From NCBI GenBank assembly GCA_034522055.1, contig JAXHLS010000002.1, positions 2,497,549-2,561,548 on the forward strand: DNA of 64,000 nt, read 5' to 3'. A program made the translations under genes and the position numbers. Below, piece after piece: positions 12,570 to 64,000 of the stretch (within the stretch, counting starts at the first letter, position 1; each line of letters starts with the position of its first letter). The DNA is from Gammaproteobacteria bacterium. GTDB lineage: Bacteria > Pseudomonadota > Gammaproteobacteria > JAABTG01. Under the pieces are notes generated by a model that did no database searches, was not told the DNA's origin, and saw nothing but the letters and a program-made list of their open reading frames with translations.

Positions 12570-12599
12570 GCGGGACGATCTCCCCAGTTTGTTTGAGCA

Positions 12600-12728: not shown

Positions 12729-12735
12729 GTACGGA

Positions 12736-14100: not shown

Positions 14101-14130
14101 TGTTTGGTCTCCTGCCGGACTCGTTGGGGT

Positions 14131-16788: not shown

Positions 16789-16964
16789 GGGTTTCTCGTC
16801 GAGTTCGTCGTTATTGGGAATCCTGACCGGCGCGGGAGCGGGATTGCATACATCCCTTCGCAGCCGGGCCCGTCGCCACCGCCGCCGATGCTCTGCGCTG
16901 CCCGCGCCGCCGGCGGCTCCAGCCGCTGCCGGGGCGGGCGTTAAAAAGGCCGCTAGTTTAACCT

Positions 16965-17088
16965 AACTCTCATGGCGATACGCGCCGCCCAAGATGATGA
17001 AAGAGGAGCGCGTATCGCCCTGTTCGTTCCCTCACCCCATCCCTCTCCCAAAGGGAGAGGGGAATCGTGCTTCGCGACTTTCACGTTA
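16965..17088 (+). repeat. MITE-like structured repeat element, short variant (copy 3)
   Basis: Same ends and internal hairpins as copy 2, opposite orientation; immediately upstream of aceE. Confidence 0.85.
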
Positions 17089-19604: not shown

Positions 19605-20235
19605 TCCGGCGCCGGTTGCCGGAAAGGGCGTCGTGGCGGGTCGCTTTCGCGGCTTCCTGCCGGTGGTGGTGGACGTGGAGACCGGGGGCTTCAACGCCCG
19701 CACCGACGCCCTGCTGGAGGTGGCGGCGGTGATCGTGGGGCCGGACGAGGAGGGCGTGTGGCGCCGCCAGGCCACCCATGCCTGCCACGTGGAGCCGTTC
19801 TCCGGTGCCAACATCGAAAAGGCGGCCTTGGAGTTCACCGGTATCGACCCCTATCATCCCTTTCGCGGCGCGGTGTCCGAGGCGGAAGCCCTGCGCACCG
19901 TGTTCCAGCCCATCCGCGCCGCCATCAAGGCCGCCGGCTGCAGCCGGGCGGTGCTGGTCGGACACAATCCCGCCTTCGACCTCGGCTTCATCAACGAGGC
20001 GGTCAAGCGCACGAGTACCAAGCGCAACCCCTTCCATCCCTTCTCGTCCTTCGATACCGCTACCCTCGGCGGCCTGGCCTTCGGCCAGACCGTGCTGGCG
20101 CGGGCGGTGCAGGCCGCGGGCATGGAATGGGAGAGCGGCAGCGCCCATTCGGCCATCTACGATGCGGAGCGCACGGCGGACCTGTTCTGCGCCATCGTCA
20201 ACCTCTGGGACCACCACATAGGAATCGAGCCATGA
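19588..20235 (+). CDS. rnt: ribonuclease T
   Basis: Near-colinear with E. coli RNase T ([35 protein letters not shown]); the start could equally be the ATG at 19597. Confidence 0.85.
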
Positions 20236-21173
20236 CCACACCGCGCAAACTGCGGGGTGCCGACAAGACATCGCGCAACCCCGTCAAGATACCGTCCACC
20301 ACCGGCCCCCTGTTGCGCAAGCCGGCGTGGATCCGGGTCAAGGCCCCCCTGGCCCCGGAGGTGCAGAGGCTGAAGGGGCTGTTGCGCCGCCAGGGGTTGC
20401 ACACGGTGTGCGAGGAGGCGGCCTGCCCCAACCTCGGCGAGTGCTTCCAGCACGGCACCGCCACCTTCATGATCCTCGGGGACGTATGCACCCGCCGCTG
20501 TCCCTTCTGCGACGTGGCCCACGGCCGGCCGGATCCCATCGACACCGCGGAGCCCCAACACCTGGCGGAGACCGTGGTGGCCATGGGGCTCAAGTACGTG
20601 GTCATCACCTCGGTGGACCGGGACGACCTGAGGGACGGTGGCGCGGGCCATTTCGCCGCCTGCATCGCCGCCCTTCGCGATGCCGCCCCCGCGGTGCGAG
20701 TGGAGGTGCTGGTACCGGACTTCCGGGGCCGCGTGGCGCGCGCCCTGGAACTGCTGGTGGCCACCCCGCCCGACGTGTTCAACCATAACCTGGAGACGGT
20801 GCCGCGGCTCTATCGCGAAGCACGGCCGGGGGCCGATTACGCCGGCTCCCTCAAGCTGCTGGCGGATTTCAAGGCCCGCTGCCCGTCGCTGCCCACCAAG
20901 TCCGGCATCATGCTGGGCCTGGGGGAGGAGCGCGCCGAGGTGGAGCAGGTCCTCGGGGATCTGCGTTCCCATGGCTGCGATATGGTGACCATCGGTCAGT
21001 ACCTCCAGCCCAGTCGCGACCACCTGCCGGTGAGTCGTTACGTGCCGCCGGAAGAGTTCGCCCAACTGGCGGAGGCGGGCCGGGCGCTGGGCTTCGCCAA
21101 TGTGGCCAGCGGCCCCCTGGTGCGCTCCTCCTACCATGCCGATCAGCAGGCGGCGGGCGAGCACATATCCTGA
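20232..21173 (+). CDS. lipA: lipoyl synthase
   Basis: 314 aa; radical-SAM CPFCDV and [12 protein letters not shown] cysteine clusters; ATGA overlap with the rnt stop. Confidence 0.9.
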
Positions 21174-21194
21174 GAACCGATCGCGCCTGAGCCC

Positions 21195-21962
21195 ATGGAT
21201 GGTTTCCTGCTGTCCAAGTTTGTGGCCGCCTGGCTGCTGCCGCCGGGCGGGCTAATCATCGGCCTGGTCCTCGGGCTGGCGCTGCGTCGGACATGGCGCC
21301 GCGCCGGAAACCTGCTCATAGGGTTGTCCCTGGCGGCCCTGGTGGCCCTTACCAGCCCGCCGGTGGCCCACCTGCTGATGAGTGGCCTCGACCGTTATCC
21401 GCCCCTCACCACCGGAGCCCTGAAGGACCACCGGCCCGAGGTCATCGTTGTGCTGTCCGGTGATCGTCGCGAGGAGGCCGCGGAGTACGGCGGCGATACC
21501 GTGGGAACCGCCACCCTGGAGCGCCTGCGCTACGGGATCCGCCTGAACCGCGCCACCGGCCTGCCCCTGTTGCTCAGCGGCGGCTCGGTGAGCGGCGACG
21601 ACGACTTCTCCCTGGCCTTCCTCATGAAGGAGGCGGCCGTGGACGATTTCCGCGTGCCCGTGGTGTGGCTGGAGGAGGAGAGTCGCAATACCTGGGAGAA
21701 CGCCGTCTACAGCGCGGCCGTGTTGGAGCATGAAGGGATCTCACGGATCCTGCTGGTGACCCACGCCTACCACATGCCCCGATCGATGGCCTGCTTCGAG
21801 GCCGCCGGCATGGAGCCCCGGGCCGCGCCCACCGGCCTGATCGGGCCCCTGGACATGAAGGCCACGGACTGGATACCGAGCAGCAAGGCCCTGGTGGCAA
21901 GCACCCTGGCCCTCCACGAGTACCTCGGCATGGTGTGGTACCGCATCAAATACGACCTGTAG
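21195..21962 (+). CDS. DUF218 (YdcF/ElyC/SanA family) protein
   Basis: 255 aa; N-terminal TM segment then a DUF218-like domain. Confidence 0.6.
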   Translation: MDGFLLSKFVAAWLLPPGGLIIGLVLGLALRRTWRRAGNLLIGLSLAALVALTSPPVAHLLMSGLDRYPPLTTGALKDHRPEVIVVLSGDRREEAAEYGGDTVGTATLERLRYGIRLNRATGLPLLLSGGSVSGDDDFSLAFLMKEAAVDDFRVPVVWLEEESRNTWENAVYSAAVLEHEGISRILLVTHAYHMPRSMACFEAAGMEPRAAPTGLIGPLDMKATDWIPSSKALVASTLALHEYLGMVWYRIKYDL

Positions 21963-22486
21963 GTCGGGCTGTAGGTCGGACTTCAGTCCGACAGCCCGCG
22001 GCTGGTACCGCCCCGGCCCGGGGTGTGCGCGGCCGGCCTGAATGTCGGGATGAATCCCGACCTACAAAAAAGCGTAACCGCGAAAGACGCGAAATGACGC
22101 GAAAAGGGAGAAGGTCAGGGAGGAGGGGCAGTTCGAAAAGGCGCAGCGGATCCACCGTTTCGGCGTCAGCAGAGCGGACGCACGGGTGGTAATCTTTTCC
22201 CATTTCCCCTTTCCCCTTTCCCCTGGGGAGAAGGACAGAGGCGTAGGTCGGCTGCTCCTGGCGGTCGACGGAAACTCGGCGGTTTGCGGGCGCGGATGTC
22301 GGTTGCCGAGAGCAACCGACCTACATCCGTGCCGATGGAACAGGCGGTGGTGATGTATCTGTATGTCGGGCTGTAGGTCGGACTTCAGTCCGACAGCCCG
22401 CGGCTGGCACCGCCCCGGCCCGGGGTGTGCGCGGCCGGCCTGAATGTCGGGATGAATCCCGACACAGAGCGACACACCCTGCCGGT
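21963..22486. repeat. composite REP-like intergenic element (copy B)
   Basis: Same ~330-bp core as 4975-5300, flanked on both sides by gtaggtcgggctgtaggtcggacttcagtccgacagcccg palindromic units. Confidence 0.8.
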
Positions 22487-30683: not shown

Positions 30684-30885
30684 TTAACGTGAAAGTCGCG
30701 AAGCACGAACTCCCCCTCTCCCTCTGGGACAAATCCGTCGGGAACGGATTTGAACGCGCCTTGGCGCGGCCCGCAGGGCGAAGGGCAGGATGCCCGGAGT
30801 ACAGGGATGGGGTGAGGGAACGAACATGGCGATAGGCGCTCTTATTTCATCATCTTGGGCGGCGCGTATCGCCATGAGAGTTAAC
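30684..30885 (-). repeat. MITE-like structured repeat element, long variant (copy 4)
   Basis: TTAACGTGAAAGTCGCGAAGCAC ... GCCATGAGAGTTAAC; contains the same ~75-bp insert (with AAATCCGTTCCCGACGGATTT and CGCGCCAAGGCGCG palindromes) as copy 1. Confidence 0.85.
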
Positions 30886-49129: not shown

Positions 49130-49330
49130 ACGAATGGACGTCGGGATTCATCCCGACATTAAACCCCGCGGGGCACACGACGGGCCGGGCCGGAATCACC
49201 CGCCAGCGTTGGGTGTCGGACTGAAGTCCGACCTACAGCCCGACCTACACAATCCCCCCTACCGCCCATTCCTTTGGCACGAATGTAGGTCGGGATTTAT
49301 CCCGACAATCAAACTGCTGCGACCGGCTTG
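49130..49330. repeat. REP-like palindromic element cluster
   Basis: gtcgggattcatcccgacat, gtcggactgaagtccgacctacagcccgacctacac and gtaggtcgggatttatcccgacaatc. Confidence 0.75.
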
Positions 49331-49525
49331 GCCCAGTCAGGCATATTCCTGTCCAGCGTCCGTATTCCGCCGTTGATCACGTGCAGCAGGCGCCGGATGT
49401 CGGGGCGCTGCTGCTGACAGGCACGCCGGCCGCTATGGCGTCGAGCAGCGTGTCAGTCATGGTGCTGCCGCCAAGGGTGGTTTCGAAGGCGAAAGCGGTA
49501 TCGTCGCGAATGGCTGCCCGCAGTC

Positions 49526-49708
49526 TGCGCCGCGGCTGGCATCGAGGATCTGCATTTCCGCGATCTGAGGCACGAGGCCACCAGCAGATTAGCCGAGTGG
49601 CTCCCGAACGTTATCGACTTAGCCGCGGTCACCGGCCAGCGGGATCTCCGAATGTTGGCCAGGTACTACCACCGGCGAGCGGGGGACTTGGCGCAGAAGC
49701 TCGGATAA
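49526..49708 (+). pseudogene. tyrosine recombinase (phage integrase) C-terminal remnant
   Basis: Frame translation gives ...AAAGIEDLHFRDLRHEATSRLAEWLPNVIDLAAVTGQRDLRMLARYYHRRAGDLAQKLG*, i.e. the HxxRH and LGH...Y catalytic-tyrosine motifs with no N-terminal body. Confidence 0.65.
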
Positions 49709-49791
49709 TGGACGTATCGACATTGTTGCTACACTCTGGGCGTTCATTTATTCTTCGGGTAGAGCGACGACTTGAGATGAGGTCTGCCGAG

Positions 49792-50040
49792 ATGAAAGTG
49801 ACAATAAAGAAGTGGGGAAACAGTGCCTCGATCCGTATTCCCGTGGCCATTATGCAGGCGGCCAAGCTACGTGTAGACGCAACGGTTGACGTTCGAGAAG
49901 AAGATGGTCGTGTTGTCATTGAGCCCGTTCCCGAGCCCGAGAAAGATTTCGATCTCGATGTGCTCATTTCGGGGATCACTTCAGACAATCTTCATGCCGA
50001 AATCGACTTTGGTCCCCCGGCCGGGAAGGAAACGTTGTAA
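49792..50040 (+). CDS. mazE: MazE/PemI-family antitoxin
   Basis: 82 aa; MKVTIKKWGNSASIRIPVAIMQAAKLRVDATVDV (SpoVT/AbrB swapped hairpin); TAATG overlap with the toxin gene. Confidence 0.75.
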   Translation: MKVTIKKWGNSASIRIPVAIMQAAKLRVDATVDVREEDGRVVIEPVPEPEKDFDLDVLISGITSDNLHAEIDFGPPAGKETL

Positions 50041-50393
50041 TGGCCAGGCCAAGGAAGGCGTATATCCCCGACACCGGCGATATTGTATGGCTCCATCTCG
50101 ATCCGAGAGTCGGGCATGAACAAGCCGGCCGGCGTCCTGTAGTGGTTTTATCTCCGGCGTCCTACAATGGAAAAACAAGCCTGATGCTCTGTTGCCCGAT
50201 GACAACGCAAATCAAAGGCTATCCATTCGAGGTCGAGATATCCGCCAGCAGACAAGGGGTAGCGCTCGCGGACCAAATAAAAAGCCTTGACTGGAGAGCG
50301 AGAAAAGCGACCAAGAAAGGGAACGTCACCTCAGAGGAGCTTTTTAAGATTCGACGTAAGACCCTGGCGCTGATTGGTTCCACGATTGCTTAA
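50040..50393 (+). CDS. mazF: MazF/PemK-family endoribonuclease toxin
   Basis: 117 aa; YIPDTGDIVWLHLDPRVGHEQAGRRPVVVLS ... CPMTTQIKGYPFEV. Confidence 0.8.
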   Translation: MARPRKAYIPDTGDIVWLHLDPRVGHEQAGRRPVVVLSPASYNGKTSLMLCCPMTTQIKGYPFEVEISASRQGVALADQIKSLDWRARKATKKGNVTSEELFKIRRKTLALIGSTIA

Positions 50394-50548
50394 GGGGCGG
50401 CTTCCACCGCCCCCTATCCAATCAATCCTCCGACTGGAGCCAGTTCGCTGCATCGGCCCTGGCCCATGAGAGCATCGGGTAATCGGCCAGCCGGTACTCC
50501 ATCCGGTAGCCCTGCTCGGCCGACTCGACAGACCAGTAATGCTGACCC

Positions 50549-51311
50549 TTGAAAAATCTTTGGCTATATCCGGATCTCGCAAAGCCCCGATTGCTCGTAT
50601 TGCCTGACCTGGTGGGTCTCATGAACGTTTTCACAGTGTCCAAAACCGTGCCGGGATTTGCTCAGGCAAATCAAGGTTCCCGACAGCCAGATAAATCATG
50701 TCGGAGAATGCATCGAGATGGCGGTGTAGATGGCTGTAAAAACCCGCATATCTGGCGAAGGATTGATTGCCAGGCCAATCAGTCGCTGAGCCGGCAGGCG
50801 GGCGGCGGCAAGCAACCGGTGACAAGAGTGCCGGAATCGGGTGGATGAAGAGGGGCCGTTGAGACAGGTGCGATACCGGGTGTAATTGACTTGGCCGTCG
50901 AGCCCGGTATCGCACTCCGGGCCGTGCAGAGCATGAGCCCGCACACTATTTCTCGTTTTCCCCTGACAATCAAGTGCGCATTCCACGCCATTCGCAGATC
51001 AAGTCCTCATCTCTCTTCATCGGGGCAAAAGTAAGCCCGCAGACTGGCTGCCACCGGCATCCGACGGTTTCGCCCCACAGGCGCCGAGCACGCGCAGCTG
51101 CCACCGTCCATCTCGCCGTGGGGAGGCTCGGCCCGTAGGTCGGCTGCTCTTGGCAGCCTACGGATAAGAAAGCTCGCGCCATGACTGCCTGCATTCATGA
51201 GTGCCCGTACTCAGGCCACGGCTGAATGCCGCCGATAACGTGGCCTGCCCGTAAGAGCCCGCTTGCGGGCGAATGGTTGCTATGGAGCCAAGGCTGAATG
51301 CCACGGATAAC
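50549..51311. repeat. duplicate of the CRISPR array-end flank plus a 2-repeat degenerate mini-array
   Basis: ~600 bp near-identical to 53130-53713, with one ~110-bp indel; ends in degenerate CRISPR repeats ggccacggctgaatgccgccgataac (to 51239) and aggctgaatgccacggataac (to 51311). Confidence 0.8.
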
Positions 51312-51553
51312 TATCGTCTTCCTGCGCCAGCGTCTCGCTCAGGCGCAAGCCCATCGAGTAGGCTGCAATGCGCCGCACGGCGCGGGCACAGGCATCGATG
51401 GTCTTGTCGCTCATGCCCTGCTTCCCTTTCGGACCGGCCTGCCTTTATATCGACAGAATAACCTAATCTCGGTACAACATAATAACCTAGTAAGCGTGCA
51501 GCAGGAAAACCTTGCAAACACGACACAGAATAACCGAGCAACGAGGAAAACAG

Positions 51554-53107
51554 ATGGCCACCCCCTCCGAGAAGCTTGCCGAATCGCTTGAGGTCCTCAA
51601 GGCTCTCCAGAAGGAGGGTGCCGTTGCGATCCGGTCGGCCGGGCTTTCCCGTGTTCATCGTGAACGCCTGCTCAAGGGCGGCTTTCTGCAGGAGGTCATG
51701 AAGGGATGGTACATACCGGCCCGCCCGGATGAACCTGCCGGGGAGAGTACCGCTTGGTATGCCTACTTCTGGGGCTTCAGTGCCGCCTATCTTCGGGAGC
51801 GCTTCGGTGGCGCCTGGTGTCTGTCGCCTGAACAGTCCCTTCTGCTCCATACGGGAAACCGGACGGTTCCCGGCCAGCTCCTCGTTCGGACCCCAAAAGG
51901 GGGCAACAAGGTAACGAAGCTGCCTCACAATACATCGGTGCTCGATGTCCGGGTCGCTATGCCCGACCCAGAGGAGATCGTTGAACTCGACGGTCTACGG
52001 CTCTACGCAGTTTCGGCGGCACTGGTGTCCAGTACGCCCGGTTTTTACCGCCGGCATGCGACCGAAGCGCGCGCCGCCCTTGCCATGGTCGACGATGCCT
52101 CTGATCTTCTCCGTCCGCTGCTTGATGGCGGACACAGCACGATAGCCGGTCGTCTCGCCGGTGCCCTGCGAAACATCGGACGCGACCGTATGGCCGAGGA
52201 GATCGTCAAGACCATGCAGGCTGCCGGTTATACCATCCGTGTGGACGATCCTTTTGAAGCGGCAGCGACCACGCTGCCGGCTCCACGCGAGGTCTCGCCC
52301 TGTGTGAACCGCTTGCGCCTCATGTGGGAAACCATGCGGGTAGCGGTTATTGAGCGCTTTCCTGTGGCCCCGGGTCTGCCGGGAAGGCCAGGAGATTATC
52401 TAAAGGACGTGGAAGAAATCTATGTCACCGATGCTTACCACTCCCTGTCAATCGAGGGATACCGGGTCAGTGCCGAGCTGATCGAGCGCGTACGCAGCGG
52501 CAACTGGAACCCTGACGGGTATGCCGGTGATCGCGCGCACCTTGATGCCCTCGCCGCGCGCGGCTACTGGCAGGCTTATCGTGCCGTGCATGACAGTGTG
52601 GAGAGCGTGCTGGAGGGCAAGAACGCAGGGACTGTCGCCGACCAGGATCACGGCACGTGGTATCGAGATATGTTTGCGCCGAGTGTCACCGCCGCTCTGG
52701 TTCGCCCAGCCGACCTCGCCGGATACCGCAACGAACAGGTCTATATACGGCGTTCAAGGCACGTGCCGCCCCGGCGTGAAGCCGTCCGCGAAATGATGCC
52801 CGATTTTTTCGAGTTGCTGGCCGGAGAAGCAGAGCCCGCCGTTCGGGTCGTTCTTGGCCACTTCGTGTTCGTCTACATCCATCCCTATTTGGACGGCAAT
52901 GGGCGTATGGGAAGGTTTTTGATGAATGTCATGCTTGCCTCGGGCGGCTATCCATGGACCGTCATTCCCCTTGAGCGACGCGATGTCTACATGGCGGCGC
53001 TTGAAGAAGCGAGCGTGAGGCAAGACATTCGGCCGTTCGCGGAGTTTCTGGCCGGTTTGGTCGAGACAAGACTTCAGGGCCAGGCCACAGCGAAACGGCC
53101 ACGATAG
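51554..53107 (+). CDS. Fic/Doc-family protein
   Basis: 517 aa from MATPSEKLAE (GAGGAAA RBS); canonical Fic motif HPYLDGNGRMGRFL near the C-terminus; long N-terminal extension. Confidence 0.8.
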   Translation: MATPSEKLAESLEVLKALQKEGAVAIRSAGLSRVHRERLLKGGFLQEVMKGWYIPARPDEPAGESTAWYAYFWGFSAAYLRERFGGAWCLSPEQSLLLHTGNRTVPGQLLVRTPKGGNKVTKLPHNTSVLDVRVAMPDPEEIVELDGLRLYAVSAALVSSTPGFYRRHATEARAALAMVDDASDLLRPLLDGGHSTIAGRLAGALRNIGRDRMAEEIVKTMQAAGYTIRVDDPFEAAATTLPAPREVSPCVNRLRLMWETMRVAVIERFPVAPGLPGRPGDYLKDVEEIYVTDAYHSLSIEGYRVSAELIERVRSGNWNPDGYAGDRAHLDALAARGYWQAYRAVHDSVESVLEGKNAGTVADQDHGTWYRDMFAPSVTAALVRPADLAGYRNEQVYIRRSRHVPPRREAVREMMPDFFELLAGEAEPAVRVVLGHFVFVYIHPYLDGNGRMGRFLMNVMLASGGYPWTVIPLERRDVYMAALEEASVRQDIRPFAEFLAGLVETRLQGQATAKRPR

Positions 53108-53677
53108 GCAAAGTGGTTCTCAAGCCCGCAAATATTCCGGCTATATCCGGATCTCGCCGCGCCCCGATGGCTCGTATTGCCAGGCCAATCAGTCGCTGTA
53201 GCTGGCTGTAAAAACCCGCGCATATCTGGCGAAGGATTGATTGCCAGGCCAACCAGTCGCTGAGCCGGCTGGCGGGCGGCCGCGAGCAACCGGTGACAAG
53301 AGTGCCGGAATCGGGTAGATGAAGAGGGGCCGTTGAGACAGGTGCGATACCGGGTGTAATTGACTTGGCCGTCGACCCCGGTATCGCACCCCGGGCCGTG
53401 CAGAGCACGTGCCCGCACACTATTTCTCGTTTTCCCCTGACAATCAAGTGCGCATTCCACGCCATTCGCAGATCAAGTCCTCATCTCTCTTCATCGGGGC
53501 AAAAGTAAGCCCGCAGACTGGCTGCCACCGGCATCCGACGGTTTCGCCCCACAGGCGCCGAGCACGCGCAGCTGCCACCGTCCATCTCGCCGTGGGGAGG
53601 CCCGGCCCGTAGGTCGGCGGCTCTTGGCAGCCTACGGATAAGAAAGCTCGCGCCATGACTGCCTGCATTCATGAGTG

Positions 53678-56600
53678 CCCGTACTCAGGCCACGGCTGAA
53701 TGCCGCGGATAACGGGCTGGTGGATGAGGGATACCGCCCCGGCCGCAAACAGCTTCAGTGAGGCCGCGGCTGAAAGCCGCGGATAACCAAGACCAAGCCC
53801 GCGGGCAAGCTGGCGGATGTGGTGCTTCAATGAGGCCGCGGCTGAAAGCCGCGGATAACTGGAAACGAATGGGCCGGGGGGCACGGAGCCGCACCCGCTT
53901 CAATGAGGCCGTGTTGTTTCGCGGCTGAAAGCCGCGGATAACGGTGTTGGCCTCGCCGGCGGCGTAGGCGGGGCCCATGCTTCAATGAGGCCGCGGCTGA
54001 AAGCCGCGGATAACCCAGCTTGTGGGTGAAGGCCTACCGCAGCAAGAACCAGCTTCAATTAGGCCGCGGCTGAAAGCCGCGGATAACGCCGGGGCGCAGG
54101 TGGGGCGGGACGTCGGCGGCATCGCTTCAATGAGGCCGCGGCTGAAAGCCGCGGATAACCACTCAGGACCTTGCGCAGATTGCAAGTTTTCCGCGGCTTC
54201 AATGAGGCCGCGGCTGAATGCCGCGGATAACAGGGCGTGGCCTACGACCAGGTGAAGTGGATCGAGGTGGCTTCAATGAGGCCGCGGCTGAATGCCGCGG
54301 ATAACCCGAGAATGGTGTTTGCGCTCGCACGGTCTGTTGCCGCTTCAATGAGGCCGCGGCTGAATGCCGCGGATAACCCGGCATGTCCACCGGAACGACA
54401 CCAGTAATGGCCAGGCTTCAATGAGGCCGCGGCTGAATGCCGCGGATAACGCGTATATTCGGCGTCTGCTCGCTCCTCCAGATACGGCTTCAATGAGGCC
54501 GCGGCTGAATGCCGCGGATAACGGCCGAGGCCGCGTATCTGGGCCTGCAATCCATCGCGGCTTCAATGAGGCCGCGGCTGAATGCCGCGGATAACCCAGC
54601 ACACAACCCATGCCAGGACGGCTACAGCGGGCTTCAATGAGGCCGCGGCTGAATGCCGCGGATAACGAGGCCTGGGCGTACTGGCTCAAGGTCAAGGCAA
54701 CGCTTCAATGAGGCCGCGGCTGAATGCCGCGGATAACTCGGCATCGTCGCAATCAGCGGCGTGTTTGAGTTCCCGCTTCAATGAGGCCGCGGCTGAATGC
54801 CGCGGATAACGCGCCGGAAGGGTACAGTTCCACCGCCGCGCAAAATGCTTCAATGAGGCCGCGGCTGAATGCCGCGGATAACCTGGCCGCGGGCGAGGAG
54901 GTGGGCGTCATCGACAGGCTTCAATGAGGCCGCGGCTGAATGCCGCGGATAACAAGCGGGCCGAGGGTCTGAGCCGCAGCCTGCAAATCGCTTCAATGAG
55001 GCCGCGGCTGAATGCCGCGGATAACGGTCTACCTCCCGCACACCGAGGGCCTGAATACCAAGCTTCAATGAGGCCGCGGCTGAATGCCGCGGATAACCTT
55101 CGGCGTGAGGCTGGAACCACTTCCTGTCATTCGGCTTCAATGAGGCCGCGGCTGAATGCCGCGGATAACGCCAGACAAATGAGGCCACCTACAGGAGACA
55201 CCATGCTTCAATGAGGCCGCGGCTGAATGCCGCGGATAACAGCGAGGAGGCCCTGAGGACCACTGTGACGCAAGATGCTTCAATGAGGCCGCGGCTGAAT
55301 GCCGCGGATAACGCAGACCCTGGAAGCGGCACCAGTGGACACAGGCGGCTTCAATGAGGCCGCGGCTGAATGCCGCGGATAACGCACGGGCACGGGTGGT
55401 CAGGGGTCGCACGGGCTTAGCTTCAATGAGGCCGCGGCTGAATGCCGCGGATAACGCACGGGCACGGGTGGTCAGGGGTCGCACGGGCTTAGCTTCAATG
55501 AGGCCGCGGCTGAATGCCGCGGATAACTGCGAGGCGAGATTCGCCAGGGCGGAGCAGGTGACGCTTCAATGAGGCCGCGGCTGAATGCCGCGGATAACCG
55601 GTAACGGCGTGACCGTGCTCGACGTGGACATTGCGGCTTCAATGAGGCCGCGGCTGAATGCCGCGGATAACCAGAGCATGGACAGCAACATGCCGGACCT
55701 GTAGCGCTTGCTTCAATGAGGCCGCGGCTGAATGCCGCGGATAACGTACTTGGTGTTCCCGTAGGCTACGTGGCGGTCCTTGCTTCAATGAGGCCGCGGC
55801 TGAATGCCGCGGATAACTCCACCTGCCCGACGACGTGGACGAGGACTACTGCGCTTCAATGAGGCCGCGGCTGAATGCCGCGGATAACGATGCCTGTAAG
55901 GGATATGACGGCGGTCTTTACAGAGCTTCAATGAGGCCGCGGCTGAATGCCGCGGATAACGGTGCCAGGTGTTCCCGTCCGCCGGGTCGCCGCCGAGCTT
56001 CAATGAGGCCGCGGCTGAATGCCGCGGATAACATCGGGTAGTAGGTTCTCCTCTTGAAGATTTTTCATGCTTCAATGAGGCCGCGGCTGAATGCCGCGGA
56101 TAACCACGTGGTGGCCCTGGCTCCCAACTCACCTACACTAGGCTTCAATGAGGCCGCGGCTGAATGCCGCGGATAACCCAGGGTATGCAGACGGCGCTTG
56201 AGGTCTCGCCGCAGCTTCAATGAGGCCGCGGCTGAATGCCGCGGATAACATGGAAGAACGGGCCTTCAGGGCGACAGACTACGCAGGCTTCAATGAGGCC
56301 GCGGCTGAATGCCGCGGATAACTGGTCTGCCACACCACCACGGGCGTCACCAGGTACACGCTTCAATGAGGCCGCGGCTGAATGCCGCGGATAACGTACT
56401 TGTCGAATAGCCAGGCCTGCTTGGCCTCGGTGCTTCAATGAGGCCGCGGCTGAATGCCGCGGATAACATCGCCGACAGCAACAAACTCCGCCGGATCGCC
56501 ATCGCTTCAATGAGGCCGCGGCTGAATGCCGCGGATAACTTGCGGCATCCCGCCGCGAATCACCCCCGGAGGTTGCCGCTTCAATGAGGCCGCGGCTGAA

Positions 56601-56828
56601 TGCCGCGGATAACCCTGTACGACAGAGATGGGCCACGCGTTGACGGTATGCTTCAATGAGGCCGCGGCTGAATGCCGCGGATAACTACGAACCGCCGAAG
56701 ATCTTGCTGACCCTCCTTAAGCTTCAATGAGGCCGCGGCTGAATGCCGCGGATAACGCCGCAATACTTGCTTCGCGGGAGGAGACATAAGATGCTTCAAT
56801 GAGGCCGCGGCTGAATGCCGCGGATAAC
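53678..56828 (-). CRISPR. CRISPR array, 44 repeats of 36 bp (plus strand GCTTCAATGAGGCCGCGGCTGAATGCCGCGGATAAC), ~35-37 bp spacers
   Basis: Minus-strand repeat GTTATCCGCGGCATTCAGCCGCGGCCTCATTGAAGC has a 7-bp stem and ends in an ATTGAAGC 5'-handle-like 8-mer; the AT-rich leader and cas2 are at the 56.8-kb end; the first ~7 repeats at the 53.7-kb end are degenerate (AAAGCC for AATGCC, and one 46-bp repeat with an insertion). Confidence 0.95.
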
Positions 56829-57053
56829 CGCCCCTCCCCGAACCAAGGGCCGGCGGGGCCTGCCGGCGGGTCTTGCGAGCGGTGCGGGTTTCTGGCCAAT
56901 GGTCATCATGCCATTCTCATGTGGGGCTGGAAATGGTTTATGTAATTGATTGTTTGTTAAAGAGCATCCGGGCTGCGAGCGGTCCCCGGGGTTTTCGGTG
57001 CCACCGGACCGCTCGCGGCACCCAGGCGGAGCCCGGCGTCGCCGGCAACCGCT
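56829..57053 (-). promoter_or_regulatory. CRISPR leader
   Basis: Between cas2 and the newest repeat; contains the AT-rich tract atggtttatgtaattgattgtttgttaaagag. Confidence 0.6.
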
Positions 57054-57344
57054 TCAGACTATGGTAGGTACTCTTTCCACCAGATTGAAGTCCTTTCCCA
57101 GGCTGGTGACCCGCGGTTCGACCTTGTCGGCCACTCCGATGTCCACCAGCAACACGTGGTCGGCGTCATGGTGGATGATCTGGTCGAGCATGGCGATGAG
57201 GTCCGCATGGCGGCGCCGGGACAGGCGACACTGGAAAACGGACAGTTGGAGCCATTCGCCGTAGCCCTTCATGGTCTTGAAGACCGCGCGCCAGCGCCGG
57301 GGATCGGCGATGTCATAGGAAACGATGTAGAGGTGTTCGTCCAT
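57054..57344 (-). CDS. cas2: CRISPR-associated endoribonuclease Cas2
   Basis: 96 aa; MDEHLYIVSYDIADPRRWRAVFKTMKGYGEWLQLSVFQCRL is a canonical Cas2 N-terminus. Confidence 0.9.
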   Translation of the reverse strand: MDEHLYIVSYDIADPRRWRAVFKTMKGYGEWLQLSVFQCRLSRRRHADLIAMLDQIIHHDADHVLLVDIGVADKVEPRVTSLGKDFNLVERVPTIV

Positions 57345-57350
57345 GGCCGG

Positions 57351-59060
57351 TCACCGGGTCGTGAAATTGGGATTGTCGTCGAGGTCGCCGAGCAGGTAGC
57401 GGCCAAGCAACCGGCCCTGGAGTTCCAGCAGCCGCCGGTAACTGAGCCGGTAGCCGAAGATCGGATGGGTGATCTCCTGGCTTAGGCGACGCTCGTACGC
57501 GGTGATGAAACGCTTGCGGCCATCCGGGGTGAGGTTCACGGCGCCTGCGGCGGTGACGAAATCCGATGGCCGCACCTCGCCATTATTGATGGCCTGGATG
57601 ACGCTGGAGTCGGCGAGCAGGGGTCTGAAGGGTTCCATCATGTCCAGGGCGAGGGCAGGGCGGCCATATCTGGGCTGATGATAGAAGCCGCGAAAGGGGT
57701 CGAAGCCCACGGCTCCGAGGGTAACCGCCCAGGTGCGGGACAGCAGCGAATAGGCATAGGACAACAGTGCATTGACGGGGTCGCGGGGCGGGCGCCGGTT
57801 GCGCTGGGTGAAGTCGAAGGCGAAGGTGGCCTCCGGGGTCTCGGCCTTCAAAAGGTTTCGGAAAGCACCGAAGTACTTTGCCGCGGCGCTGCCCTCGATG
57901 CCGAGCAGCTCCTCAAGATTGCGGCAGCGCAGGGCCTCTTCCGAAAGGTGCTTGAGGTCTCTGAGCAGCCGTTCCGGCTTCTCGTCGAGGCGCCAGTTGC
58001 GGCGCAGCAGGGTGCGGCTGTTCTGGATCTTAGCCCGTACCCAGCCCTTCGCCAGATGCAGGCAGACTTTCTCGTCGAAGCTCTCCCGATACTGAGCGGT
58101 GCGCAACTCCACGTTTTTGTGACCGTTGCCGATGGAGTGGCCGAGGAACCAGCCGCCATAGCTGTGCCAGGTGACGGGGATATCCCTGCGCATGAGCTCG
58201 TGGAGGGTGGGCGTCGTGAGATAGACGTTGCCCATGAGGACCACCTGGGAGATGTCGATCAATCGCACATGAGCCGCCGGTTTGTCATCGACGGAGACTT
58301 CCAGGGTCTCACCCTTCTTGCGCACCGCCGCCTTGTTGGCCTGGACATACAGTGGCAGGGCCTCGTCCCGCCCCACGGCAAGGGGGCGAGGGGGTGTTTC
58401 GGTTCGCCGCAGATAGTTGACCTCGTCCGGCAGGCAGATCCCCACCAGCGAGCAACGCGGACACTTGGGGCTGTCTTCCAAGGGCACCGGCATGCGCCCT
58501 CCGACAGCCACCAGACGCAATCCGTTGACGGCCGAGCGGGTACGATTGCGCAACTCCTCGTCGAATTCGACGGTTACCCGTTCCTTCGACTCGACGAAGT
58601 AGAGGATGCCATGGTCGCAATGGTAACCATGCTCCTCGAGAATGAGGCCCTGCACGCAAAGCTGCACCCGCTCGGGTTCGTAGGCACCCTTGGCGACGTG
58701 GGGGCGCTTGCCCCGCTTGTAGTCCACGGGTACCACTTCTTCCCCCTCGCCCTCCACCAGGTCCAGCTTGGCGATGAGCCCGATCTTGCGGGAGGACAGG
58801 GTAATGGACTTGGCATGGAAGGTCTCGTATTCCTCGGCCTCCCCAGGGTCCGGCAGCTTGCCGCCAGGCTTGTCCACCCGGCGATGCCGGTATCGCCCTT
58901 CCACCGTATCGGCGGAGTCCGCCCATTCCCCCTGGACCCATTCCAGATAGGCCAGGCGCGGGCAGTATTCGTACTCGTTGACCATGCGCGCCGGCAGCAG
59001 CGGCAGGTCTTCGGACAACTCCGGGAAGCTGAAGGGCAGTTCAGGTTGCTGGTCGGTCAT
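57351..59060 (-). CDS. cas1: Cas4-Cas1 fusion protein
   Basis: 569 aa; N-terminal Cas4 RecB-like nuclease with 4Fe-4S cysteines (YEYCPRLAY ... CPRCSLVGIC); C-terminal Cas1 (NALLSYAYSLL ... MMEPFRPLLAD); this fusion is the hallmark of type I-U/I-G. Confidence 0.9.
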   Translation of the reverse strand: MTDQQPELPFSFPELSEDLPLLPARMVNEYEYCPRLAYLEWVQGEWADSADTVEGRYRHRRVDKPGGKLPDPGEAEEYETFHAKSITLSSRKIGLIAKLDLVEGEGEEVVPVDYKRGKRPHVAKGAYEPERVQLCVQGLILEEHGYHCDHGILYFVESKERVTVEFDEELRNRTRSAVNGLRLVAVGGRMPVPLEDSPKCPRCSLVGICLPDEVNYLRRTETPPRPLAVGRDEALPLYVQANKAAVRKKGETLEVSVDDKPAAHVRLIDISQVVLMGNVYLTTPTLHELMRRDIPVTWHSYGGWFLGHSIGNGHKNVELRTAQYRESFDEKVCLHLAKGWVRAKIQNSRTLLRRNWRLDEKPERLLRDLKHLSEEALRCRNLEELLGIEGSAAAKYFGAFRNLLKAETPEATFAFDFTQRNRRPPRDPVNALLSYAYSLLSRTWAVTLGAVGFDPFRGFYHQPRYGRPALALDMMEPFRPLLADSSVIQAINNGEVRPSDFVTAAGAVNLTPDGRKRFITAYERRLSQEITHPIFGYRLSYRRLLELQGRLLGRYLLGDLDDNPNFTTR

Positions 59061-59352
59061 GGTGGACGTATTCCGTTAGCCCGCGTTCACCCGTGCAGAG
59101 GTTACTCGGGTCATCGCCATCGCGCTAACGGCTGCTCGCGCGGCCGTGACCGGCGAAGCTCGACAATCGCCGCCGGGTATGGCCCGGATGCTCTTCGTGT
59201 CGTGGCGCTGGAAAGGACGCATGGCACGAAACAAGAAAGTGCTCTGAATGGGCGATGCGACGAGCCGTGAGGAATTTTCCCTGGGGTGTAATGCCGTTCT
59301 AATACACGACAAGAGCTGTCCAAACGGAATATCGGCTTCGCTCCTGGCGTGT

Positions 59353-60213
59353 TCATTGCGGTACAAACATTCCCAAGCCAAAGTGACAGCCGAAGCCGAG
59401 TGCGAGCGGGCCGCCTATTGGTTCTGAAAACTCGATCTGCCAGAAGCTGCCGTGTCGATCGGGTTGGCTGAGGCCACGTCGGGCGCGGATGCGGTGGAAG
59501 TGAAGCGGGTAGCGGTCACGGCCACCAATAGAGATTGACGGCAGGCGCTCGATTCGTAGGGGTTTGGGGAACCCTCGCTCCCCGCATTCTCGCCGAATCT
59601 GGTCCTCTACGGTGAAGCCGTTCTTGGCGTGCCAGGGGTGCAGATAGGGCGTAACCGAGGTCCATTCTCGGCTTGGCTCTACCAGGGAACCACCGACCCC
59701 AACTCCACCAATACCTTCCAGGATCAAGCGCCATTTACCACCGTCCCGCTGCCAGATCTTACGCAACCTCCCGATGATGAGGCGTTGGTCTCCAGAGAAC
59801 CCAGCCGGAACGTGGATCACCGCACGATTCAGGTAGCCATGGCCGCTGCTGTCATAGGGCAGATAGAATGCGTGTTGATGCCGATTGCCTTGGGGCAGAT
59901 CGTGGCCGGAAAAGATGGGAGGTGCAGAGTAGCGCCCGGCCTCGTCCTTACCGAAGGCACTCATCACAGCCCAGCGCAGCAACTCACCGATACGGAGACT
60001 GTCCTCTACGCGCGGCAGCGGCTTTCCGACCAACAAGAAGCGGGCGGTGGTGAACATAGGAAAGGCTGCCTTGTGGTTCGTCCAATCAGGCGGGGACCTG
60101 CTTGGTAGCTGCAGGCAATCGGCCCGGTGGCCACTCATGAGGAGGATACTCACACAAGGCTCGCATCCTGGAATATTGGTATGGCCGTCATCGCTTGGCT
60201 GAGTGGTATTCAT
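59353..60213 (-). CDS. CRISPR-associated RAMP protein (Cas5/Cas6-like, Csb2-like?)
   Basis: 286 aa; C-terminal glycine-rich loop LALGFGCHFGLGMFVP typical of Cas5/Cas6/Cas7 RAMPs; located between cas3 and cas4-cas1; subfamily not resolved. Confidence 0.55.
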   Translation of the reverse strand: MNTTQPSDDGHTNIPGCEPCVSILLMSGHRADCLQLPSRSPPDWTNHKAAFPMFTTARFLLVGKPLPRVEDSLRIGELLRWAVMSAFGKDEAGRYSAPPIFSGHDLPQGNRHQHAFYLPYDSSGHGYLNRAVIHVPAGFSGDQRLIIGRLRKIWQRDGGKWRLILEGIGGVGVGGSLVEPSREWTSVTPYLHPWHAKNGFTVEDQIRRECGERGFPKPLRIERLPSISIGGRDRYPLHFHRIRARRGLSQPDRHGSFWQIEFSEPIGGPLALGFGCHFGLGMFVPQ

Positions 60214-60298
60214 CTCTTATTTGTGCGTAATGGTTGGAGACGCCGCTTCTGCGATTGATTCTTATCCGATGTTTGTCAGAGCCGGTATGCTGGATTCA

Positions 60299-61237
60299 CT
60301 ATAAGACTTCGCTTGGTGCGAAATTGCCATAGCCTCCCTGATCGGAGCGGTGGATACGCGATTGCAGGACGCAGCCAATGCCACGAGCCACTCGCTCGCG
60401 CGCCCTCATATCGGGCAAGCCCGGCAGGTTCATCAGAACCTCGGCAGTGCGTATGGTGCAATCCCGCGTCCATAGGGGCCAGCGGAAGCCACCGTTTTTC
60501 CAACCGCCATAACAGCCAGTGGTTACCAGCCTTGTACCCACAGCGAAGCTGCGTAGTACGGCCAAGCCGCGAAAAGCGAGCCAATCGGCACCGGGTACGC
60601 CGAGCTTCTTGTCGGTCGAAGGATTGCTGGCACGGAGGGCGTAGTCCCGAGTCACGGTCGAGTCCCATCCGAGCACTGGCATCGGCCGGGAGTAGGTCCA
60701 CGGTCCAAACAGCGCTTCTGCAAGGTCCTCCCTGGTAACTCCCTTTCCGTCATATCCAGCGAGAGTTGCTGCCATGTGAAGAAATTCCTGTTGCCCGGCA
60801 GTGAAATGCAATGGAAAAGGCTTTGTGGCCCCGTTGTTATCGACTACACCCTCGGCCGCGAACGCTGCGGCGTACTGCGCCGCTCGTCTTCCCTTGGCTG
60901 AGTCTTCATCAAGCAGCTGCTGGAGGTAGGCACGGAAGCGGGGCGGTGGTGGTTTCAGGTCCCACGCGAGCCTTTCAGGTTTGTCCTTGTGCTTCGGATA
61001 CCGCAGGTCTAATGTTGCATCGTGGGGCCAGCAAATAGTTGCATCAGCTTCCAGGAAATCCAGAAGCTCTTCACGGTTGAGCAAACTGCACAATTGCGGT
61101 ATCCAGGTTCCGTCTTGCCGCCAAGTTAACCGCGGGGCTTCGCCAGACTGTTCACTCAAAACTCGCAGCGCGCCCATTGCAGCCAGAAACCCTAACGGGT
61201 TGGTTCCGTCCAGTCCAGGCAATACCAATGTGTTCAT
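60299..61237 (-). CDS. CRISPR-associated effector subunit (possibly Cas7/Csb1-like)
   Basis: 312 aa; start overlaps the cas3 stop (translational coupling); position and size fit the Cas7 slot of I-G loci; no motif-level confirmation possible here. Confidence 0.45.
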   Translation of the reverse strand: MNTLVLPGLDGTNPLGFLAAMGALRVLSEQSGEAPRLTWRQDGTWIPQLCSLLNREELLDFLEADATICWPHDATLDLRYPKHKDKPERLAWDLKPPPPRFRAYLQQLLDEDSAKGRRAAQYAAAFAAEGVVDNNGATKPFPLHFTAGQQEFLHMAATLAGYDGKGVTREDLAEALFGPWTYSRPMPVLGWDSTVTRDYALRASNPSTDKKLGVPGADWLAFRGLAVLRSFAVGTRLVTTGCYGGWKNGGFRWPLWTRDCTIRTAEVLMNLPGLPDMRARERVARGIGCVLQSRIHRSDQGGYGNFAPSEVL

Positions 61238-64000
61238 AGGTTTCCTCTTTCCTCCTGCTCGCTGCGTCGGTGGTCAGCGAGACGCAGGATGGCTTCAACC
61301 CAGGCCAGTCCGTGGCTTCCGTAACGCTCAGTCAGGATGAAGAAGCGGTCGCTAACCCCCGAGTCAAGGGCGGCGAGGCCATGGTCAGTCGACGCACTGA
61401 GTGCGGCCCCGTCCAATTCAATTTTGATTTGAACTGGTTCGCCAACCGACTCAGGCTCCACGGGCGCCAAGGGTCGGCAGTGGCCGTGATGTGACGCGAC
61501 CAAGTACAGCACTAGGTCCCAGTCATTTGCCTTGGCGCGCACGTGTTCGGCGTCCTGCAACAACGCGAGGGAGATCAGTTCATGCCGGGTGCCGACGGGG
61601 TAATCTGCGCGGCGTCGGGCTTCGGCCTCCTGGCGGCGATTACGACCGCTCACGGCTGATTTGGCCAGCGCCTCAGGTGCGGTCAGGGCGCGGTATTCGC
61701 TCCCACCGTGTAGCAGGCATTGGAAGCGCGAGTCGTGCTTGCCGAGGTCGTGCAACTGGCCAGCGAGGCGCAGATCCTGCACCAAGGGCTCCGGTAGGCC
61801 GCAACGACGCGCAAATCCCTCGGCTAGTCGGCCGACGCCGGCAAGATGTTTGCGTAGCGGGGCGGCCTTGCCGATGAGGGACAGCTCGTCGCCATCCAAT
61901 GCCAAGTCAGGACTGACAAGTCCCGTCACGGGGTTCGCCGATTTAATAATCCGGCGTGAGATTAACACCCAGCTGTCTCCGATTTGGTGGCCTTTGACGC
62001 GGATTAGTCGCGGACCGTCGCGTTGCGCCAATTCTTCGAGCAATATGCGAATCGCATCGGCGCGGATGTCCCGGATTCCGGTTTCCGCTACCACGTTGCC
62101 GGCGTGTTCGGCAAGGAAACGCCGGATTTGCCCCCGATCGTCGGTGTCCTGCTCCGCGTCACCCTCTATGGGAACAGGCGGTTCGCTGCCTGGCCAGAGC
62201 CGACTGTCCAGACGGAGTACAGCGCGTCCGCGTTGCTGCAAGTGAGCGGCGTCTGCGAGGTCTGTAACCGGCTCCGCTGCACCGGGATCCCAGTTGCCGG
62301 AACGGATTCCGCCGTAATCAATCGGAACGATCACGGTATCCCAGGCTTTGATTACTGTCGAACGGATTGCCTGGGCTTCTCCGTTGCGTATAACCAGTGC
62401 AGGGCGCCCATGAGGCTGCTCGGCTTTCGTCGCTTCGGGTGTGTGCCTCTCTACGTCCGCAAGAGCCGCATCGGAATCCGGATCGGTACCGAGCAGCCAC
62501 CCCTTCGCAGCCCATACGGGGACGGCTAGACTCTCCGACGTTAGAGGCGGGCAGGCGTCGAGGCGCTCTGCGAGCGCCCTGGAGATCGGTGTATCCTTTT
62601 CTCCATTGGCGTTCTCGCGTGCTGCGACTTCCAACTCTGTTTCTTCCAGATCTGCTCGCCAAACGACCCTTACTTCGGCCGACGATTCCCGGGGGCCGTG
62701 TAGCCAGAGGGCGACGTCTGGGTCGGGATAGGGGACTGGTGCAGTCTGGCTCCAAGCGTCCAAGTGCGCGGGCAACAGAATAGGGGAAGTAGTTACGGGG
62801 GTCAGAAGCCGCACCAGATCGTTGCGCTTAGGCAGCGTCAGCCCCTCGGAGCCAAAGTCGACCTGCTGAAGAGAGCAAAGGTAGTTCCAAGTCGCGGCTG
62901 CGGCTGTTCCGTAGATCGGGTCGTCCCCGTCGATATCGCTCCGTGCGAATATGGTGCCCGCGGCGTTGTCCAGGTCGCCGGCCCGGTTCAGGCGCCCGAA
63001 GCGTTGGCGCAGGGCGTCGAGGCTGGCGCACTCGGTGAGAAGAATATCGAAGTCGAAGTCGGCGCCTGCCTCAATGCATTGGGTGGAGACCAGCACCACG
63101 GCGTCCAGGGTGGCGTCGCGGCTGCGACCAGTTGTAAGTCGGGCTTGGAGCTTTTTCTCCAATTCTTGGCGATCCAACGGGCGCATGCGGCTCGTCAACA
63201 GCCAAGTGTTCGCAGCCAGACCGCGTGCCGTGAGGTCGGCGTAAATGAGTCGGGCAGCTTGCACTCGGTTTACGACCACGCCAACGGCATTGCCCGGCTG
63301 AATGGCGTCCACCGCGGCGGCAGCCATTTGCTCGGCCAGAACAGTCAGCCGGCGCGACTCGCCGCCGCTGACCTTGACCATCTTAAGGTTGGTCGGCTTT
63401 CGCGCTACGAGGCGGCGGCGAAGGACCCCATTGTTTAGGTCGGCGGCATCCAGCCTGAACGGCTTCGCACCGTCCTCGTGGTGCGTTGCGGATAGCTCTA
63501 CCAACTGGAAGCGCCTTGGTAGTCGGGAGCCTATCCGGTCGGCGTGATAGCGCTCCAGCATTCGCAGCGTATCGCAGAACGGGCGTGCCAGGTGCACCTC
63601 GTCCAGCATAAACAATATGTCGTTACCCAGCAGTCCGGCATGTACCGGACGCATTCCCTCGCTGACACCATAGCCTCGGAAGAACAAGCGTGAACCGACT
63701 TGATCGACGGTAGAAATCAACACGGTCGGTTGTGCAGGGTTGGCTGCCCAAGTGTCGTCGCGCTGGACGGCGCCACGCAACAGGGCAACGTGTAGCGGCT
63801 CGTGGGTGCCCGCGAGGCGGATCAACTGATCAGCCACGCGCCGGACGACTGAATCCGGTTTGCTGTCAGCGAGTACGTTAGCGAGCTTGATCGCCCGCGC
63901 GAAGGATTGATCCGCCACGGTGCGCCGATCCACTACGAAGGCGATTCGGCAAGGCAGGCGTTGTCGGCCGGCCGCGAGGTCCGCCGCCAGAGCGAATACG
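61234..64000 (-). CDS. cas3: Cas3 helicase with C-terminal HD nuclease domain (N-terminus beyond the window end)
   Basis: More than 920 aa in window; DExH motif LFMLDEVHL; C-terminal HD motif LHDLGKHDSRFQ ... LYLVASHHGH; a C-terminal HD is characteristic of type I-G/I-U Cas3. Confidence 0.85.
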   Translation of the reverse strand, partial: VFALAADLAAGRQRLPCRIAFVVDRRTVADQSFARAIKLANVLADSKPDSVVRRVADQLIRLAGTHEPLHVALLRGAVQRDDTWAANPAQPTVLISTVDQVGSRLFFRGYGVSEGMRPVHAGLLGNDILFMLDEVHLARPFCDTLRMLERYHADRIGSRLPRRFQLVELSATHHEDGAKPFRLDAADLNNGVLRRRLVARKPTNLKMVKVSGGESRRLTVLAEQMAAAAVDAIQPGNAVGVVVNRVQAARLIYADLTARGLAANTWLLTSRMRPLDRQELEKKLQARLTTGRSRDATLDAVVLVSTQCIEAGADFDFDILLTECASLDALRQRFGRLNRAGDLDNAAGTIFARSDIDGDDPIYGTAAAATWNYLCSLQQVDFGSEGLTLPKRNDLVRLLTPVTTSPILLPAHLDAWSQTAPVPYPDPDVALWLHGPRESSAEVRVVWRADLEETELEVAARENANGEKDTPISRALAERLDACPPLTSESLAVPVWAAKGWLLGTDPDSDAALADVERHTPEATKAEQPHGRPALVIRNGEAQAIRSTVIKAWDTVIVPIDYGGIRSGNWDPGAAEPVTDLADAAHLQQRGRAVLRLDSRLWPGSEPPVPIEGDAEQDTDDRGQIRRFLAEHAGNVVAETGIRDIRADAIRILLEELAQRDGPRLIRVKGHQIGDSWVLISRRIIKSANPVTGLVSPDLALDGDELSLIGKAAPLRKHLAGVGRLAEGFARRCGLPEPLVQDLRLAGQLHDLGKHDSRFQCLLHGGSEYRALTAPEALAKSAVSGRNRRQEAEARRRADYPVGTRHELISLALLQDAEHVRAKANDWDLVLYLVASHHGHCRPLAPVEPESVGEPVQIKIELDGAALSASTDHGLAALDSGVSDRFFILTERYGSHGLAWVEAILRLADHRRSEQEERGNL

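Follow-up and report, generated by a model that had tools for sequence, protein, structure and literature searches.

We analysed a 64,000-nucleotide stretch of DNA (hereafter the window, to which all positions refer) from contig JAXHLS010000002.1 of a gammaproteobacterial metagenome-assembled genome (MAG; GenBank assembly GCA_034522055.1). It carries a CRISPR locus with its CRISPR-associated (cas) genes, and the DNA at one end of the CRISPR array is present twice, as long direct repeats that enclose an intact gene for a Fic-family protein. We describe the array and its orientation, the duplicated flank and the DNA between the two copies, and then consider how this arrangement may have arisen.

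The locus is a type I-G CRISPR-Cas system that is transcribed from right to left. Its array, on the minus strand at 53678-56828, consists of 44 repeats and 43 spacers according to the repeat/spacer table, and the Rfam family CRISPR-DR16 matched every repeat, always on the minus strand. Between the first perfect repeat and cas2 lies the leader (56829-57053, minus strand), with an AT-rich core at ~56900-56960. The cas genes follow on the same strand (57054-64000): cas2, a cas4-cas1 fusion, csb2, the gene for the Cas3 extension and cas3, which runs off the window. These assignments come from Pfam, which found Cas4 and Cas1 domains together in a single protein of 569 aa, Cas2, and a C-terminal Cas3_HD, and from NCBIfam, which identified the type I-G Csb2 (3e-28) and the Cas3 extension (4.5e-97). 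The rest of the operon, with homologues of GSU0053 and GSU0054, was found on unitig L003/L102 from sequencing run SRR26473340. Leader and cas2 thus stand at one end of the array (56829-57344) and the repeats with mismatches at the other (53678-54159). Together with the minus-strand repeats, this identifies the duplicated DNA as the trailer, that is, the flank of the old, leader-distal end. An earlier interpretation, made from the letters and open reading frames (ORFs) alone and here called the sequence-only reading, had likewise placed the duplicated flank beside the oldest repeat.

The duplication was examined by repeat finding, MAFFT and BLAST, all three of which showed direct repeats, with overall limits at 50562-51240 and 53139-53714. 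It is real and far beyond chance. The sequence-only reading had proposed near-exact direct repeats of ~600 bp at 50549-51205 and 53130-53690, limits that were in essence correct although slightly off; the repeats are 575-680 bp long and comprise ~570 bp of flanking DNA plus the terminal repeat. When the two flanks were aligned, the core (50722-51240 versus 53194-53714) was 96.9% identical over 521 columns with both BLAST and MAFFT (E=0), the copies differing by 13 substitutions and one 2-nt indel. Most of this core is the trailer itself, in an upstream copy (segment B, 50722-51203) that is 97% identical to the downstream copy joined to the working array (B', 53194-53677). To the left, homology extends over a further 43-48 nt at 88-91% identity (segment A, 50562-50609, versus 53139-53186) and starts at GGCTATATCC in both copies. 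Segments A and B are separated by 112 bp (50610-50721) found only in the upstream copy, which accounts for the indel of ~110 bp noted earlier. In the downstream copy, whose left end occupies 53139-53193 (A' and a patch), the 112 bp are replaced by 17 nt, AGGCCAATCAGTCGCTG, with their source ~60 nt further into the same copy. A patch that copies nearby sequence is the signature of a template-switch deletion, and the upstream copy is therefore the more complete one.

On the right, both copies end with the same degenerate CRISPR repeat, in agreement with what had been read from the sequence alone. This repeat is R0 (53678-53713), the terminal repeat of the array, in the downstream copy and R0' (51204-51239, minus strand) in the upstream copy, where it has 8 mismatches to the consensus and a single difference from R0. 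Beyond R0' follow a 36-nt spacer (sp', 51240-51275, minus strand) with the hairpin GCCCGCTTGCGGGC, and a second degenerate repeat (R1', 51276-51311, minus strand) that matches the consensus at 28/36 nt (8 mismatches). The upstream copy does therefore end in a two-repeat mini-array (51204-51311), which the sequence-only reading had described as a relic. Past the terminal repeat, homology between the copies ends save for one shared G, which may be chance, and the next 36-38 nt (sp' versus sp1, the spacer next to R0) are unrelated; sp' is also unrelated to every other spacer of the main array. Since the right limit falls exactly at the repeat and the spacers behind it are unrelated while the adjacent trailer is 97% identical, a simple tandem duplication is excluded. 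The same observation leaves the earlier proposal of a segmental duplication that captured fic without support, as the duplicated DNA stops where the terminal repeat stops.

The trailer is native to this genome. Each copy holds a hairpin resembling a repetitive extragenic palindromic (REP) element, and the one at 51134-51164 matches 5174-5204 of the window at 97%. The core of this element, CCGACCTAC, occurs 20 times in the window, where 0.44 copies are expected by chance. A REP element of a family that belongs to this genome marks the trailer as native intergenic DNA and not as part of an incoming element. Members of this REP-like family lie at 4990-5301, 21959-22381, 40149-40314, 44749-44814, 49228-49293, 51135-51143 and 53609-53617. 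Between genes, they often occur together in blocks of 100-300 bp, and these blocks recur in turn, as at 4999-5298 and 22067-22366 (93% identity).

We also considered whether the trailer might be a conserved CRISPR-associated element or an RNA, and rejected this. It had no Rfam match, its fold z-score was only -2.7, and nothing similar to it was found in 80 related type I-G loci, in plasmids or in phages; an exact 22-mer from it was not found in the JGI metagenomes or in IMG/VR. No protein-coding content could be recognized either. The ORFs of 74, 63, 96, 94 and 99 aa had no Pfam match, no homologue was found for orf73 (50422-50643, minus strand), and a search of the public gene-call index gave no exact match for the 74-aa ORF. 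The latter, on the minus strand in both copies, had been described as identical in the two. In fact, the copies differ at two residues (Q17P and S23G), both substitutions being non-synonymous, and we regard this ORF as spurious.

The DNA between the two trailer copies is a patchwork with three joints: between R1' and a gene stub, between the 5' region of the stub and the fic module (51448/51449), and between the 3' flank of fic and segment A' (~53138/53139). The stub, at 51313-51414 on the minus strand, comprises 34 codons (MSDKTIDACARAVRRIAAYSMGLRLSETLAQEDD) whose frame runs into the CRISPR repeat R1'. Its GC content at third codon positions is 82%, compared to 52-64% in the other two frames, and by these features we take it to be the 5' end of a gene that was cut at R1'. 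The only candidate protein retrieved for it from NCBI, the 44-aa hypothetical protein U5S82_12440, comes from the same MAG and is 100% identical. The stub had no Pfam or NCBIfam match; we suspected the N-terminus of a recombinase, a suggestion dropped as nothing supported it. A full copy of the gene was sought beyond the cas operon, where only toxin-antitoxin genes and a helix-turn-helix gene were found. The statement that fic is the only gene between the repeats thus holds for intact genes, with the 34-codon stub there as well.

The fic gene itself (51554-53107, plus strand) is intact and codes for a 517-aa protein (Pfam Fic, E=2.7e-13). Only the stretch 51449-53107 is similar, at 83-86% DNA identity, to fic loci on unrelated metagenome contigs; this homology runs from 105 bp ahead of the ATG to the stop codon. 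The 105 bp upstream (51449-51553, plus strand), where homology to every fic relative begins, contain three ATAACC(T/G)A motifs and may act as an operator or promoter. Downstream, a remnant of the 3' flank (53108-53138, AAGTGGTTCT...) aligns to the 3' flanks of two relatives, L007 and L089, with ~25 further nt alignable after a ~29-nt deletion, and ends at the joint to A'. Every fic relative has different flanks. On two long contigs, L004 and L007, fic directly follows a tyrosine integrase of the DUF6538 family, within defence islands whose genes include toxin-antitoxin genes (PIN and MazE), type I restriction-modification genes and GmrSD genes. No integrase precedes fic in the window, where homology reaches only 105 bp before the ATG. 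Such modular homology with ever-different flanks, and the integrase-linked relatives, indicate that fic is horizontally mobile cargo, here without its integrase. Judged by these relationships, the module that lies next to the CRISPR-Cas system between the two copies, as the sequence-only reading had placed it, is foreign DNA. Its upstream motif is conserved in every relative examined: as (G/A)ATA(A/G)CC(T/G)A, it occurs in three or four copies before fic in L004, L007, L089 and L092, the upstream-most copy being the one missing in the window. These motifs may be an operator for this Fic family's long N-terminal region, or arm-type sites of the integrase.

The protein resembles Fic/Fido AMPylases of class II, the FICD/SoFic-like group. 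Its catalytic core, HPYLDGNGRMGR, at residue 443 corresponds to HxFx(D/E)GNGRxxR with Y in place of F, and, by sequence alone, the inhibitory motif (S/T)xxxE(G/N) is present as SLSIEG at residue 297, N-terminal to the core. FICD was matched in the PDB (1.7e-21), and PADLOC reported a partial match to SoFic (1e-22, model positions 59-267 of 361); with the NCBIfam SoFic model the score was 30 bits, far under the cut-off of 550 bits. The protein is 86% identical to the integrase-linked relatives and 89% to full-length homologues. It is probably an AMPylase that is active but self-inhibited, and would be cargo of the defence island. The module resembles known integrase-fic defence-island modules in its Fic protein (86% identity), its catalytic and inhibitory motifs and its SoFic match, and differs from them in having no integrase and only 105 bp of upstream region left.

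A single intact gene between direct repeats might suggest the insertion of a transposon or cassette with duplication of its target site, as the sequence-only reading proposed for fic. However, repeats of 575-680 bp far exceed the target duplications made by transposases or integrases, and the insert is a patchwork with three separate joints. Neither terminal inverted repeats at the ends of the insert nor a transposase-sized ORF was found between the copies, and the small ORFs tested there gave no significant Pfam match, nor any match to families of transposases or integrases. We therefore set this proposal aside and consider it extremely improbable.

The broader setting is one of toxin-antitoxin genes. 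A MazE-like antitoxin and MazF toxin pair lies directly to the left of the duplicated region (49381-50393, plus strand; Pfam MazE_antitoxin 1e-8, PemK_toxin 6e-26), and BrnTA and Phd/PIN toxin-antitoxin genes lie to the right of the cas operon. Toxin-antitoxin genes on both sides of a CRISPR-Cas system are a typical defence-island setting. On balance, we favour the interpretation that the arrangement is a recombination scar at the trailer end of the type I-G array in this toxin-antitoxin-rich defence island, though we hold it with only a little more confidence than doubt; both the succession of events and the mode of recombination are reconstructed from the product alone.

Under this interpretation, the native order would have been MazEF, a trailer composed of A, the 112 bp and B, the degenerate terminal repeat, the array, the leader and the cas genes. 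A foreign patch, consisting of the 34-codon stub and the mobile fic module without its usual integrase neighbour, would have arrived with an old array end (R0'-sp'-R1') and the trailer of that end still attached, its source being possibly a related strain, possibly a sister chromosome. It would then have recombined with a chromosome that carried an intact trailer and array. On one side, recombination would have been homologous, within the trailer or the terminal CRISPR repeat; on the other, a single illegitimate joint would have linked the 3' flank of fic to A' at ~53138/53139, where no long homology exists at the left limit of the downstream copy. The outcome would be two anchors, each a trailer with a terminal repeat, around the insert, the left one keeping an orphan array end and the right one capping the working array. 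Subsequently, the copies would have diverged by ~3% and the right copy would have lost the 112 bp by template-switch deletion.

In Campbell-type integration and homology-facilitated illegitimate recombination, one crossover takes place in an anchor homologous to the host and the second joint is non-homologous. The anchor-insert-anchor form seen here is the one expected of these processes, and the likeness extends to the direct copies of a host-homologous anchor that flank the insert and to the pairing of one homologous with one illegitimate joint. The difference is that here the process is deduced from its product, with no donor, circular intermediate or empty site seen.

Several points weigh against this interpretation. 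The mechanism calls for an unusual intermediate: a molecule that is circular, or else an illegitimate joint located upstream of the anchor. The substitutions between the core copies are unevenly spread, leaving a stretch of 192 nt without any (permutation P ~0.03); this could reflect gene conversion at a later time or a constraint by selection, and the model predicts neither. In addition, the six oldest internal repeats of the array are of a GAAAGCC variant and are sandwiched between repeats of the GAATGCC type, which points to at least one further recombination event outside the model. Blocks of variant repeats in mid-array are common and have been put down to recombination, which is described as frequent within arrays (bioRxiv 10.1101/2022.05.19.492656). 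Finally, neither an allele with the empty site nor a donor was found among GTDB species representatives, JGI metagenomes, IMG/VR, plasmids and phages. The nearest Cas4/1 is 80% identical (GTDB genomes) and the nearest MazF 71% (metagenomes), and with relatives no closer than these, no empty-site allele or donor could be retrieved.

Some of the same evidence can be read as the trace of two arrays, one of which has decayed. Here, tandem and co-oriented type I-G arrays would have had homologous trailers from an older duplication, and the stub and fic would have replaced most of the left array along with its leader. The lack of relationship between sp' and any spacer of the main array is in keeping with this, the abutment of the stub on R1' fits a deletion endpoint within an array, and both multi-array type I-G loci and interrupted arrays are known among the relatives. 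However, no similarity to the leader (56829-57053) was seen in segment 51312-51448, and no leader-like sequence was found beside R1'. A trailer duplication would still be needed, so that events are added rather than removed, and the joint between the fic flank and A' would have had to fall just where the trailer of the right array has its far end. We thus find the decay of a second array rather unlikely.

The arrangement could also be an artefact of assembly or phasing, with a single trailer in the chromosome and the fic unit and the other trailer copy on a 2.5-kb circle, or in a second strain, that was threaded wrongly into the contig. The short-read assembly graph is the same for a linear form and for a chromosome plus a circle, short reads cannot phase the copies across their shared stretches of 192 and 87 nt without substitutions, and the Logan unitigs of SRR26473340 break exactly at the repeat borders. 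Against this, unitig L001 links variants specific to R0' with variants specific to A', and unitig L002 links MazF to A and the 112 bp, both of which match the linear form. Moreover, the longest contig on record for the NCBI stub protein U5S82_12440 is 3.72 Mb, a length typical of long-read assembly, and a 2.5-kb circle that lacks a replication gene would not be maintained. This makes gross misassembly unlikely, and we judge an artefact of this kind to be very unlikely as an explanation for the arrangement.

The mini-array beside fic raises a functional alternative to the recombination scar. Mini-arrays that regulate toxin-antitoxin cargo have been described, including CreTA (Li et al. 2021, cited in bioRxiv 10.1101/2023.03.03.530964). 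In an analogous module, a cr-like RNA from the mini-array would guide the type I-G Cascade to repress Fic as a toxin, and loss of the cas genes would be lethal. The layout at the locus is similar to that of CreA: two degenerate repeat-like units flank one spacer-like sequence, with a gene of a toxin family beside them and a CRISPR-cas locus as the setting. The differences lie in a spacer without a target, a degenerate handle and an arrangement that is not conserved with fic. Both orientations of sp' were compared with the window, the fic upstream region included, and with L003, which covers the cas operon and 200 nt upstream. In none of these was there a convincing partial target next to a TTN protospacer-adjacent motif (PAM), and no seed match of at least 9/12 nt was found in 51312-51600. 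The end of R1' that would code for the handle, ATAGCAAC, matches the consensus ATTGAAGC at only 5/8 positions, and the R1' stem, read directly from the sequence, contains a T-T mismatch; R1' thus does not combine an intact 8-nt handle end with a processable hairpin. Flanking sequence was read for six fic relatives (L004, L007, L089, L090, L092 and L093), and the mini-array is missing from all of it. Furthermore, Fic bears its own inhibitory motif, SLSIEG, and so needs no separate antitoxin.

A more convincing regulatory mini-array sits upstream of the cas operon instead. Outside the window, on unitig L102 from SRR26473340, we observed a second mini-array (1956-2058) just upstream of GSU0053, the first cas gene, and it served as a positive control for a regulatory mini-array in the same system. 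It contains a pair of hairpins that resemble repeats: one retains its CCTCATTGAAGC end intact and the other has CCTCATTGGCCAC as its end. Its spacer, AAGGATTTTGTTTTTTGA..., matches 16/18 nt of a TTT-preceded sequence ~60 nt upstream (L102 1917-1934). It is probably a genuine cr-like regulator of this system, and a candidate autoregulator of the type I-G cas operon; in the preprint of Shmakov et al. (10.1101/2023.03.03.530964), 'I-G' is not named in the main text. In comparison, the fic-adjacent mini-array looks like a relic and not a regulator, and the prospect of a CreTA-like module at this locus appears highly improbable. The recombination scar, in which R0'-sp'-R1' is simply an orphan array end, remains the interpretation that we prefer.

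We compared the locus with 58 related type I-G loci that had a detectable array. None of these 58 showed a trailer duplication like the one described here. Arrays were interrupted in three of the 58. In Thauera aminoaromatica S2 (L056), an insertion sequence of the IS21 family (IstA/IstB) and a 462-aa ORF were found at 12784-15312 and 19753-21355; in L024, a ParA-like gene with a lone orphan repeat behind it lies at 13879-15399; and L017 has a 300-bp gap in its array. The locus in the window thus resembles known CRISPR array remodelling in its breakpoint at a repeat, its orphan pair of degenerate repeats and its mid-array block of variant repeats, as well as in the relatives' arrays interrupted by IS21 or by a cargo gene with an orphan repeat. 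Remnants of degenerate repeats have been proposed as targets of recombination (10.1101/2023.03.03.530964). The difference is that here ~570 bp of trailer were duplicated too, and the duplication of such a trailer along with the terminal repeat is not described in the work on array rearrangement and mini-arrays cited here.

Other repeats were observed around the related loci and in the window. In a related MAG (L037), direct repeats of 160 bp (1068-1227 versus 21256-21415, 95% identity) lie ~20 kb apart and bracket the type I-G locus, and another repeat, of 121 bp, is found both directly beyond the end of the array and upstream of the cas genes (1601-1721 versus 12466-12586); these could be island borders or REP blocks. 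In the window, an element of 81-82 nt (TAACTCTCATGGCGATACGCGCC...CCCTCACCCCAT) is present in four copies of 91-93% identity, at 6812-6892 and 16964-17044 on the plus strand and at 12647-12728 and 30803-30884 in the opposite orientation. Two inverted copies of it bracket a 1424-aa ORF (12670-16944), and a separate 46-nt repeat lies beside two of its copies (12600-12645 and 30684-30729). Within the array, adjacent identical spacers, GCACGGGCACGGGTGGTCAGGGGTCGCACGGGCTTA, at 55384-55419 and 55456-55491 represent a local duplication of a repeat-spacer unit, and the repeat at 53897-53942 has a 10-nt insertion. No self-target with up to 9 mismatches was found in the window for any of the 44 spacers (43 from the main array and sp').

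Taken together, the locus is a new instance of a known event, the recombinational remodelling of a CRISPR locus in a defence island, rather than a new system or mechanism, with the long trailer duplication as its one unusual feature. By established recombination biology, direct repeats of 520 bp and 97% identity would be good substrates for RecA-mediated loop-out, in line with the looping-out of fic that the sequence-only reading had suggested. The long repeats thus predict that fic is lost at a measurable frequency, and the locus could be polymorphic in the population. A more speculative idea, which we regard as improbable, is that the trailer with its degenerate terminal repeat serves as a recurrent homologous landing pad, where defence cargo like the SoFic-like fic would be captured and from which it could be lost by loop-out between the 520-bp repeats. 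If this were true, array ends would be integron-like sites for the exchange of defence genes among related strains. As it stands, the locus provides a well-resolved example of remodelling at the old end of an array, with foreign defence cargo joined at a CRISPR repeat, an array end left orphaned and a trailer duplicated over a long stretch. It bears on the reconstruction of array histories and on the annotation of mini-arrays, as a degenerate two-repeat unit beside a toxin gene is not always a regulator.

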